From Nitrosarchaeum sp. (lineage in GTDB: Archaea; Thermoproteota; Nitrososphaeria; Nitrososphaerales; Nitrosopumilaceae): a stretch of DNA of 64,000 nt. Each line of letters opens with the position of its first letter. The first letter of the stretch is position 1. Of the stretch, positions 23,316 to 23,406 are shown one piece after another. The stretch is from positions 832,001 through 896,000 of the forward strand of contig OZ245020.1 of the NCBI GenBank assembly GCA_965223865.1, read 5' to 3'. The notes below the pieces were generated by a model. The model made no database searches. It was given only the letters and a program-made list of their open reading frames with translations, and was not told the DNA's origin. Both the position numbers and the translations under genes were made by a program.

Positions 23316-23406
23316 CGGTAGAGGTGGGATTTGAACCCACGAATGTCTACGGGAAACATTACCGGTTATCAGCCAGTCGCTTTTGACCAAGCTGAGCCAC
23401 TCTACC
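23316..23406 (-). tRNA. Atypical tRNA: GAT (Ile) anticodon on a serine-type body
   Basis: GGTAGAG/CTCTACC, 3-bp D-stem, ACTGG-CTGATAA-CCGGT, 7-bp variable arm AATGTTT-CCCGT-AGACATT, GTGGG-TTCAAAT-CCCAC, G73. Confidence 0.88.

Follow-up and report, generated by a model that had tools for sequence, protein, structure and literature searches.

A class II tRNA gene with an isoleucine anticodon and G73 on a decayed mobile element, and its long-armed relatives in ammonia-oxidising archaea

Investigating a window of 64,000 nucleotides of an archaeal genome (C1:832001-896000; positions without a prefix are those of the window), we found an intact tRNA gene, called tRNA B hereafter, which combines the anticodon GAU with a long variable arm and the discriminator G73, and which is a cargo gene of an integrated and now decayed mobile element. 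Judged by its sequence, it is a divergent class II tRNA whose body is nearer to tRNA-Leu than to tRNA-Ser. It does not stand alone: long-armed tRNAs with G1:C72 and G73 and with anticodons for codons having U in the middle (mostly GAA, but also GAU, GAG and UAA) occur in many ammonia-oxidising archaea of the same taxonomic family. tRNA B is one of the rarer GAU members of this set and has a body like that of tRNA-Leu; the larger set apparently has not been described. Applying identity rules that were established in published systems and may not be those of the host, we tentatively predict that tRNA B is charged with serine and would act as a natural Ile-to-Ser missense tRNA. The features of the window on which the following is based are:

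21364-21448, plus strand: GAA tRNA with a 16-nt variable region, G1:C72, G73 and a 4-bp D stem (ARAGORN; Rfam, 54.1 bits)
21487-21702, minus strand: ORF of 71 aa, Cys-rich, convergent with the GAA tRNA
22487-23254, plus strand: ORF of 255 aa, its stop codon 62 nt from tRNA B, which lies on the other strand
23316-23406, minus strand: tRNA B, anticodon GAU, class II (ARAGORN, Rfam and the family model R1, see below)
23428-23434, minus strand: TTAAATA box, 22-28 nt upstream of the 5' end of tRNA B (-28 to -22)
23445-23723, minus strand: ORF of 92 aa directly preceding tRNA B in the same orientation, conserved in related elements
23677-24134, minus strand: two short ORFs, N-terminal remnant of an ATPase (tblastx against C1:1892424-1892932)
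26293-28266, minus strand: element protein of 657 aa, about 84% identical to the copy in a second element
28749-29510, minus strand: truncated tyrosine-integrase gene (Pfam PF00589, E 1.1e-5, profile positions 3-62 of 172)
33669-34881, minus strand: tyrosine-integrase gene in two ORFs by a frameshift, adjoining tRNA-Met
34792-34906, minus strand: host tRNA-Met(CAU) with a 40-nt intron (Rfam), edge of the variable island

tRNA B is a well-formed gene of 91 nt which is present in a single copy in the genome, and no full-length match to it was found in the 60 relatives searched. Rfam RF00005 recovers it with 52.5 bits (gathering score 29; E 2e-8) at 23316-23406, covering model positions 1-71 of 71, and ARAGORN reports a tRNA-Ile(gat) at 23314-23406, the very name that an earlier note on this DNA had expected from an anticodon-based annotator. 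The minus-strand parse given in that note proved exact on re-reading the sequence, and the GAT anticodon, the 7-bp variable arm, G1:C72, G2:C71 and G73 were all found again. The acceptor stem (GGUAGAG/CUCUACC) is paired at 7/7 positions, these two included, and G73 is followed by CC and, in the DNA, by T. Three pairs form the D stem (GCU/AGC), its fourth position being a C13-A22 mismatch flagged by cmscan; the anticodon stem (ACUGG/CCGGU) has 5/5 pairs, one of them G-U, and includes G30-C40, and its loop reads CUGAUAA. Of the 20 nt of the variable region, 14 build an arm of seven pairs, one of them G-U (AAUGUUU/AGACAUU), around a 5-nt loop, and a single unpaired C separates this arm from the stem of a canonical T arm. 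The molecule thus shows both the long stem-loop variable region and the 3-bp D stem of class II tRNAs on a geometry of 7 bp in the acceptor and 5 bp in the T stem, and all five helices, the T-loop, the D-loop GG, U33 and the anticodon loop are intact. Its minimum free energy of -33.5 kcal/mol lies well below that of 200 shuffled sequences (-22.0 +/- 3.3; z -3.49; 0/200 as low); this is a single-sequence energy prediction, in which the acceptor, variable and T helices appear and the D/anticodon region is paired otherwise. The TTAAATA box is likely an archaeal promoter element, a similar A/T box being seen by eye about 25-33 nt upstream of most host tRNA genes.

The host genome (2.0 Mb, 34% G+C) is archaeal and encodes an archaeal AmoA, which makes the organism an ammonia oxidiser. 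Because a native tRNA-Ile(GAU) is found elsewhere (C1:695780-695866), tRNA B is an extra gene; the native gene has a class I body, A73 and a 12-nt intron beside the anticodon, and tRNA B has neither that body nor A73. A73 is also found in the native tRNA-Phe(GAA) (C1:1228852-1228925) and in the tRNA-Leu genes, whereas G73 occurs in this host in the four tRNA-Ser and in the Asp, Lys, Asn and one Arg tRNA. A single SerRS gene is present, and its product carries the arm-binding N-terminal domain Seryl_tRNA_N.

Comparing tRNA B globally with the 44 host tRNAs, the four best matches are the tRNA-Leu genes (scores 37, 34.5, 30 and 25.5), followed by tRNA-Ser(UGA) with 23, and the native tRNA-Ile is outside the best 14 of the 44. 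ARAGORN likewise calls tRNA-Leu in 21/29 of the nearest loci in relatives. With the host tRNA-Leu(UAG/CAG/GAG), tRNA B shares nearly identical D and T arms; GUGGGUUCAAAUCCCAC is the same in both, the D loop agrees in its 3' part, and UUC precedes the T stem. It differs from them in having G73 instead of A73, the anticodon GAU and a 7-bp instead of a 3-bp arm. Three acceptor pairs and one D-stem pair are altered relative to tRNA-Leu, each time with the partner base changed to match. A73 is common to all 14 of the native Leu genes aligned, and at this discriminator tRNA B departs from archaeal tRNA-Leu. With the host tRNA-Ser(GCU/UGA/CGA/GGA), it has in common G73, G1:C72, the long arm and G30-C40, and differs in its D arm, in G2:C71 instead of C2:G71 and in its non-serine anticodon; the archaeal tRNA-Ser marks G73, long arm and G30-C40 are therefore all there, the serine anticodon and an overall likeness to the tRNA-Ser of the lineage are not. 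Two parts agree with the native tRNA-Ile: the anticodon loop CUGAUAA and the 5' half of the D arm (the first 11 nt, GCUCAGCUUGG) are identical. The earlier note had seen in tRNA B the architecture of tRNA-Ser(GCT). As regards the class II fold, G73 and the arm this stands, but the D and T arms are those of the host tRNA-Leu, and the isotype models that the note had proposed as a check turned the other way: tRNA B reaches 62.1 bits on a local Leu model (native Leu 103-112, native Ser 66.7) and 54.9 bits on a local Ser model (native Ser 92.6-111.3, native Leu 59.7-68.0), both at the level of cross-isotype scores only, and both from models built on few, closely related sequences (14 native Leu and 11 native Ser genes; effective sequence numbers 1.04 for the Ser and 1.12 for the Leu model).

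The surroundings of tRNA B are those of an integrated element in decay. The two short ORFs upstream match the N-terminal ~150 residues of a 646-aa conjugation-type ATPase, assigned to the HerA/VirB4/TraG type by the Pfam domains of that protein in a fuller copy of the element, and the P-loop part is absent; one integrase gene (28749-29510) retains only the start of the catalytic domain, and the other is split by its frameshift and is homologous to an integrase of 442 aa that is intact in a third element, adjacent to tRNA-Ser(CGA). This third element is one of two fuller relatives present in the genome. Homology with two other species of the genus (G003 and G005) stops exactly at the 3' end of tRNA-Met (34792), which marks the site as an integration hot spot, and tRNA-Met(CAU) is likely the target of the element. 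Neither a second copy of the tRNA-Met 3' end (at up to 3 mismatches the only match is the gene itself) nor a flanking direct repeat of at least 25 nt around the island was found; the flank of G005 maps in inverted order to C1:790776-807903, and the island is known from its tRNA-Met edge. This tRNA-Met gene with its 40-nt intron was missed by ARAGORN in default mode and found by Rfam. A viral or horizontal origin had been suggested in the earlier note, and its horizontal half is supported by the broken integrases, the ATPase remnant and the variable island. Its viral half was not borne out in IMG/VR, where a stricter pattern selected 8 contigs, of which only 2 short ones, both from one metagenome, carry a family member.

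The 255-aa ORF is patchily distributed (7/61 genomes; three copies in this genome, four in G004), and the slot just past it holds a long-armed tRNA in 4/9 copies compared and is empty in the other five. The occupants carry GAU in G000, G001 and G004 and GAA in another copy of G004, and the stretch upstream of the tRNA, including TTAAATA, is conserved in all four occupied slots despite greatly differing tRNA bodies. The odd GAA tRNA of the window lies about 2 kb from tRNA B, and homologues of the 71-aa Cys-rich ORF beside it adjoin long-armed GAA tRNAs in G004 (91% identity), G262 and G297; by this neighbourhood, a functional link between the ORF and these tRNAs is possible. The proteins of 255, 71, 92 and 657 aa gave no match at useful E-values to Pfam, PHROG or NCBIfam. 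A dienelactone-hydrolase gene (18977-19954, minus strand) and a PNPOx-like gene (25674-26249, minus strand) travel with the element; the former is 82-88% identical to element-adjoining copies in G004 and G006 and only 66-68% identical to the copies of G003 and G005. A perfect 49-nt tandem duplication (24296-24393) overlaps the start of a gene for a plastocyanin-like blue-copper protein (24381-25253, plus strand).

Relatives of tRNA B were sought in the genomes of the taxonomic family by a pattern of a GAA or GAU loop followed by a long variable region. It matched 93/301 genomes, the matches including many native intron-bearing tRNA-Ile and tRNA-Leu genes as well as coding DNA. ARAGORN called a tRNA in 32 of 40 fetched regions and none in the other 8, 13/58 candidates had no parse of the acceptor stem, and several copies are visibly decayed. 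Together with loci found before, 37 well-formed long-armed tRNAs from 24 related genomes could be aligned, with 29 GAA, 7 GAU and one UAA anticodon, the pattern search itself being able to detect only GAA and GAU. All have G1:C72 (37/37) and 36/37 have G73; the anticodon loops are of 7 nt, and at least ten different acceptor stems occur, all of them complementary. Cells predicted to pair do so in 90.9% of cases, versus 62.8 +/- 1.0% after shuffling (reached in 0/500 shuffles) and 39.7-47.4% with slid partners, and both partners vary in 23 of the 27 pairs, including 6/6 of the arm pairs tested. Since G73 persists in 36/37 members across at least ten acceptor stems, and A73 is present in 14/14 native Leu genes, G73 looks selected.

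The family model built from these sequences (R1) gives tRNA B 76.5 bits; containing the arm, and hence favouring class II genes, it scores native Ser(GCU) at 80.7, Ser(UGA) at 71.9, Ser(GGA) at 69.0 and Ser(CGA) at 62.4 bits, and among the other natives Leu(UAG) at 64.9, Leu(GAG) at 59.2, Leu(CAG) at 58.7, Phe at 57.7 and Ile at 43.9 bits. The local Ser model outscores the local Leu model in 34/39 of the odd tRNAs, tRNA B being among the five exceptions, and by these models the body of the wider long-armed set appears closest to tRNA-Ser. Searching with R1 added a member with GAG and G73 (L141) and one with A73 (L144). The same frame can bear different anticodons: in G004 one tRNA with GAU (L038) and one with GAA (L040) have acceptor, D and T arms in common, and in G115 GAU and GAG are found on one body. 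In two members (L033, L038), C33 replaces the near-universal U33. Transposases lie beside some members, of the IS6 type (L141) and of IS66 (L011), and other members stand between housekeeping genes.

Several loci deserve mention in their own right. L119 (G303) and L144 (G025) represent a subfamily of long-armed GAA tRNAs with the acceptor GGUAGGA and A73, which by the published rules would look like Leu or Phe acceptors. At L141 (G067, 625-1586), the long-armed GAG tRNA with G73 is 130 nt from an IS6/IS240-type transposase, at L050 (G024, 7294-9169), a Ser-like UAA tRNA with G73 is about 390 nt from an IS66 transposase, and at L091 (G297, 1175-2007), four tRNA-like units stand in tandem about 290 nt apart, at least one of them with an irregular anticodon loop.

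The expected charging of tRNA B depends on the identity rules. According to a review of these (PMC9976931), archaeal Leu identity resides in A73 and the arm, with A47c and G47d in the loop and U47h at the base of the arm as determinants; G73 is an antideterminant for the LeuRS of H. volcanii, and changing A73 to G73 turns leucine into serine acceptance in several systems. Serine identity is given there as the arm plus G73, with G30-C40, the anticodon being ignored; the archaeal Ser and Ile sets are otherwise without assigned determinants in its table, and the archaeal Phe determinants include C13-G22 and G20 (PMC9976931). tRNA B retains GUAG, as well as the UUC before the T stem, and those A and G residues are paired in its 7-bp fold. 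Under such rules, G73, the long paired arm, G30-C40 and G1:C72 would allow the arm-binding SerRS to place serine on tRNA B, G73 would block LeuRS, and the absent A73 and the class II shape would weaken IleRS. On the ribosome, tRNA B would read AUC and AUU, and mobile elements would spread an Ile-to-Ser missense tRNA, from which the element might benefit by manipulating its host, in conflicts between elements or through regulated mistranslation. The Ser-like body of the family, the conservation of G73 and the occurrence of one frame with different anticodons count for charging with serine. Against it stand the higher score of tRNA B on the Leu than on the Ser model, its tRNA-Ile anticodon loop and half D arm, and A73 in two members (L119, L144), so that G73 is not absolute; furthermore, the anticodon weighs heavily in tRNA recognition by IleRS wherever this is known. 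Of the codons of the genome, 6.5% are AUY and 4.4% UUY (Phe), ATT and TTT being among the most used, and neither the island nor the two fuller elements show depletion or enrichment of AUY/UUY compared with the genome. Efficient Ile-to-Ser decoding would hence be very harmful, to the element as well, and, the element around it being decayed, tRNA B could be a recent relic. That the whole set consists of widespread serine-marked tRNAs for Phe, Ile and Leu codons, spread by mobile elements and transposons and evolving fast, which are charged with serine and used by the ribosome to reshape or poison the translation of hosts or rivals, is a more doubtful proposition than the serine charging of tRNA B itself.

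Against serine charging, the strongest competitor regards tRNA B as an auxiliary tRNA-Ile, charged by IleRS through GAU, A37 and A38 in spite of G73 and the arm; together with the nearby GAA tRNA it would strengthen the decoding of AUY and UUY, or supply copies resistant to a defence or toxin that cuts tRNAs, and its unusual body would be neutral or protective. We consider this unlikely, though it has several observations on its side: the native tRNA-Ile has the same anticodon loop and the same 11 nt at the start of its D arm, AUY and UUY are very common codons, the restriction of the anticodons to a few A/U-rich codons (GAA and GAU in all but one of the 37) fits a role in decoding, and two members have A73. 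Class I synthetases such as IleRS, moreover, approach the tRNA opposite the variable region. The near-constant G73 of the family, set against the A73 of the host Ile, Phe and Leu tRNAs, speaks against it, as does the codon usage of the island, which equals that of the host and so indicates no special demand. The GAA members also lack C13-G22 and G20, the determinants mentioned above (PMC9976931), and a nematode tRNA-Ile with a V-arm received no isoleucine in the work reported in PMC3333845.

Somewhat less probable again is that tRNA B acts outside translation, as a tRNA-shaped RNA or DNA site which might lure away enzymes that target tRNAs, mark neighbouring transcripts for processing, regulate as an RNA or serve other elements for attachment, or is a relic that is still intact but about to decay. 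The element is broken, with two disrupted integrases and a truncated ATPase, relatives have decayed (the 8/40 regions with no tRNA call and the 13/58 candidates with no acceptor-stem parse), C33 occurs in L033 and L038, and when bacterial allo-tRNA(UAU) were tested in translation, most proved inactive (PMC5389517). Set against this are the intactness of every helix and loop of tRNA B listed above and the retention, throughout the family, of G1:C72, G73, 7-nt loops and a narrow choice of anticodons, features that matter for charging and decoding.

Very improbable, finally, is that splicing removes the variable arm as a non-canonical archaeal intron of the variable loop and leaves an ordinary class I tRNA-Ile: introns are common among the host tRNAs, and tRNA-Val(CAC) of the genus has one at that same site, but the best excision from tRNA B leaving a loop of 4-5 nt yields 2/4 central-helix pairs without proper bulges, the D arm, with its stem of 3 bp and its loop like that of tRNA-Leu, is that of a class II tRNA, the variable arm directly adjoins the anticodon stem and leaves a single nucleotide ahead of the T stem, as class II tRNAs do, and the discriminator would remain G73 after splicing. 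The comparison considered every excision leaving a 4-5 nt loop and scored the motif as a 4-bp helix between 3-nt bulges; the Val(CAC) introns gave 4/4 helix pairs with flanking helices in 4/4 genomes. The outcome for tRNA B agrees with the earlier note, which had seen no bulge-helix-bulge around its arm. Among the 37 family members, 9 reach 4/4 helix pairs; an inner helix of at least 3 pairs is seen in only 3 of the 9, each of which lacks an outer helix. A looser bulge-helix-bulge scan over the whole tRNA was discarded for its many chance matches in odd and native tRNAs alike. Given the failed excision and the class II D arm, we take the arm to be retained in the mature RNA, tRNA B being on this view a class II tRNA. 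The four sequencing runs compared for 21000-24500 are DNA-type contigs from one study, which break inside the repeated T-arm. The variable-loop intron of the native tRNA-Val(CAC) (C1:1080626-1080716 in G000, and L056, L057 and L058) measures 16-18 nt, is conserved in all four genomes of the genus that were compared and shows the helix UGCG/CGCA between the bulges UAA and AAG, with an inner and an outer helix.

The genetic code is thought to be read uniformly within a cell, apart from stop-codon and rare sense-codon changes, and tRNAs carried by viruses and mobile elements normally match their isotype. Like the latter, tRNA B is an extra tRNA for a common codon on horizontally moving DNA; unlike them, its body and anticodon disagree. 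Natural tRNAs with such a disagreement are known from nematodes and soil bacteria (PMC3333845, PMC5389517). In nematodes, nev-tRNAs have anticodons for Ile or Gly; one of them, nev-tRNA-Ile(UAU) (Hamashima et al. 2012), has a class II body derived from tRNA-Leu, and it is this body, not the anticodon, that determines its charging with leucine (PMC3333845). Here, too, a Leu-type class II body bears an Ile anticodon in an extra gene beside the normal one; nev-tRNAs are, however, eukaryotic and of leucine identity, whereas tRNA B is archaeal, borne by a mobile element and has G73. The allo-tRNAs (Mukai et al. 2017) combine a serine identity with anticodons for other amino acids, Ile, Leu and Phe among them; their genes are associated with transposons and toxin-antitoxin loci, and active copies occur alongside decayed ones (PMC5389517). 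Serine-type marks with a non-serine anticodon, linkage to mobile DNA and decayed copies are thus common to both; the allo-tRNAs are bacterial, with 8/4 or 9/3 acceptor/T-stem arrangements, and tRNA B is archaeal and 7/5. By this analogy, tRNA B would resemble the nev-tRNAs most and the allo-tRNAs as well, and is a member of neither. In the literature searched, no report of tRNAs with mismatched body and anticodon was found for archaea or their mobile elements; a survey of thaumarchaeal mobile elements, among the matches listed, mentions tRNA genes only as integration targets, and its supplementary tables may list cargo tRNAs (PMC6563490).

The mismatch recurs in at least 24 related genomes with the charging marks conserved and the stems changing in a compensatory manner, which argues for function. 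Were these tRNAs charged with serine, mobile elements of globally abundant nitrifiers would encode the deliberate mistranslation of very common codons, and, if such missense reading holds true, this would be the first system of its kind in archaea; were they charged with the cognate amino acids, archaeal IleRS and PheRS would have to accept class II substrates with G73, and the identity rules would need revision. For annotation, callers which rely on the anticodon label such genes tRNA-Ile or tRNA-Phe.

Some viral tRNAs met in IMG/VR should be recorded separately. Among the matches of a first pattern, phage class II tRNAs with the loop CCUGAAA predominated; dozens of viral contigs (L177-L290, for example L182 and L202) carry such tRNAs, by eye mostly with G73, and the loop corresponds to a UGA anticodon with C in place of U33. 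Two contigs of 70% G+C (L176, L179) hold a viral tRNA of Ser/Leu-like body that has G73 and a genuine GAA anticodon, and these mismatched tRNAs on high-GC viral contigs suggest that disagreement between body and anticodon is wider than archaea.
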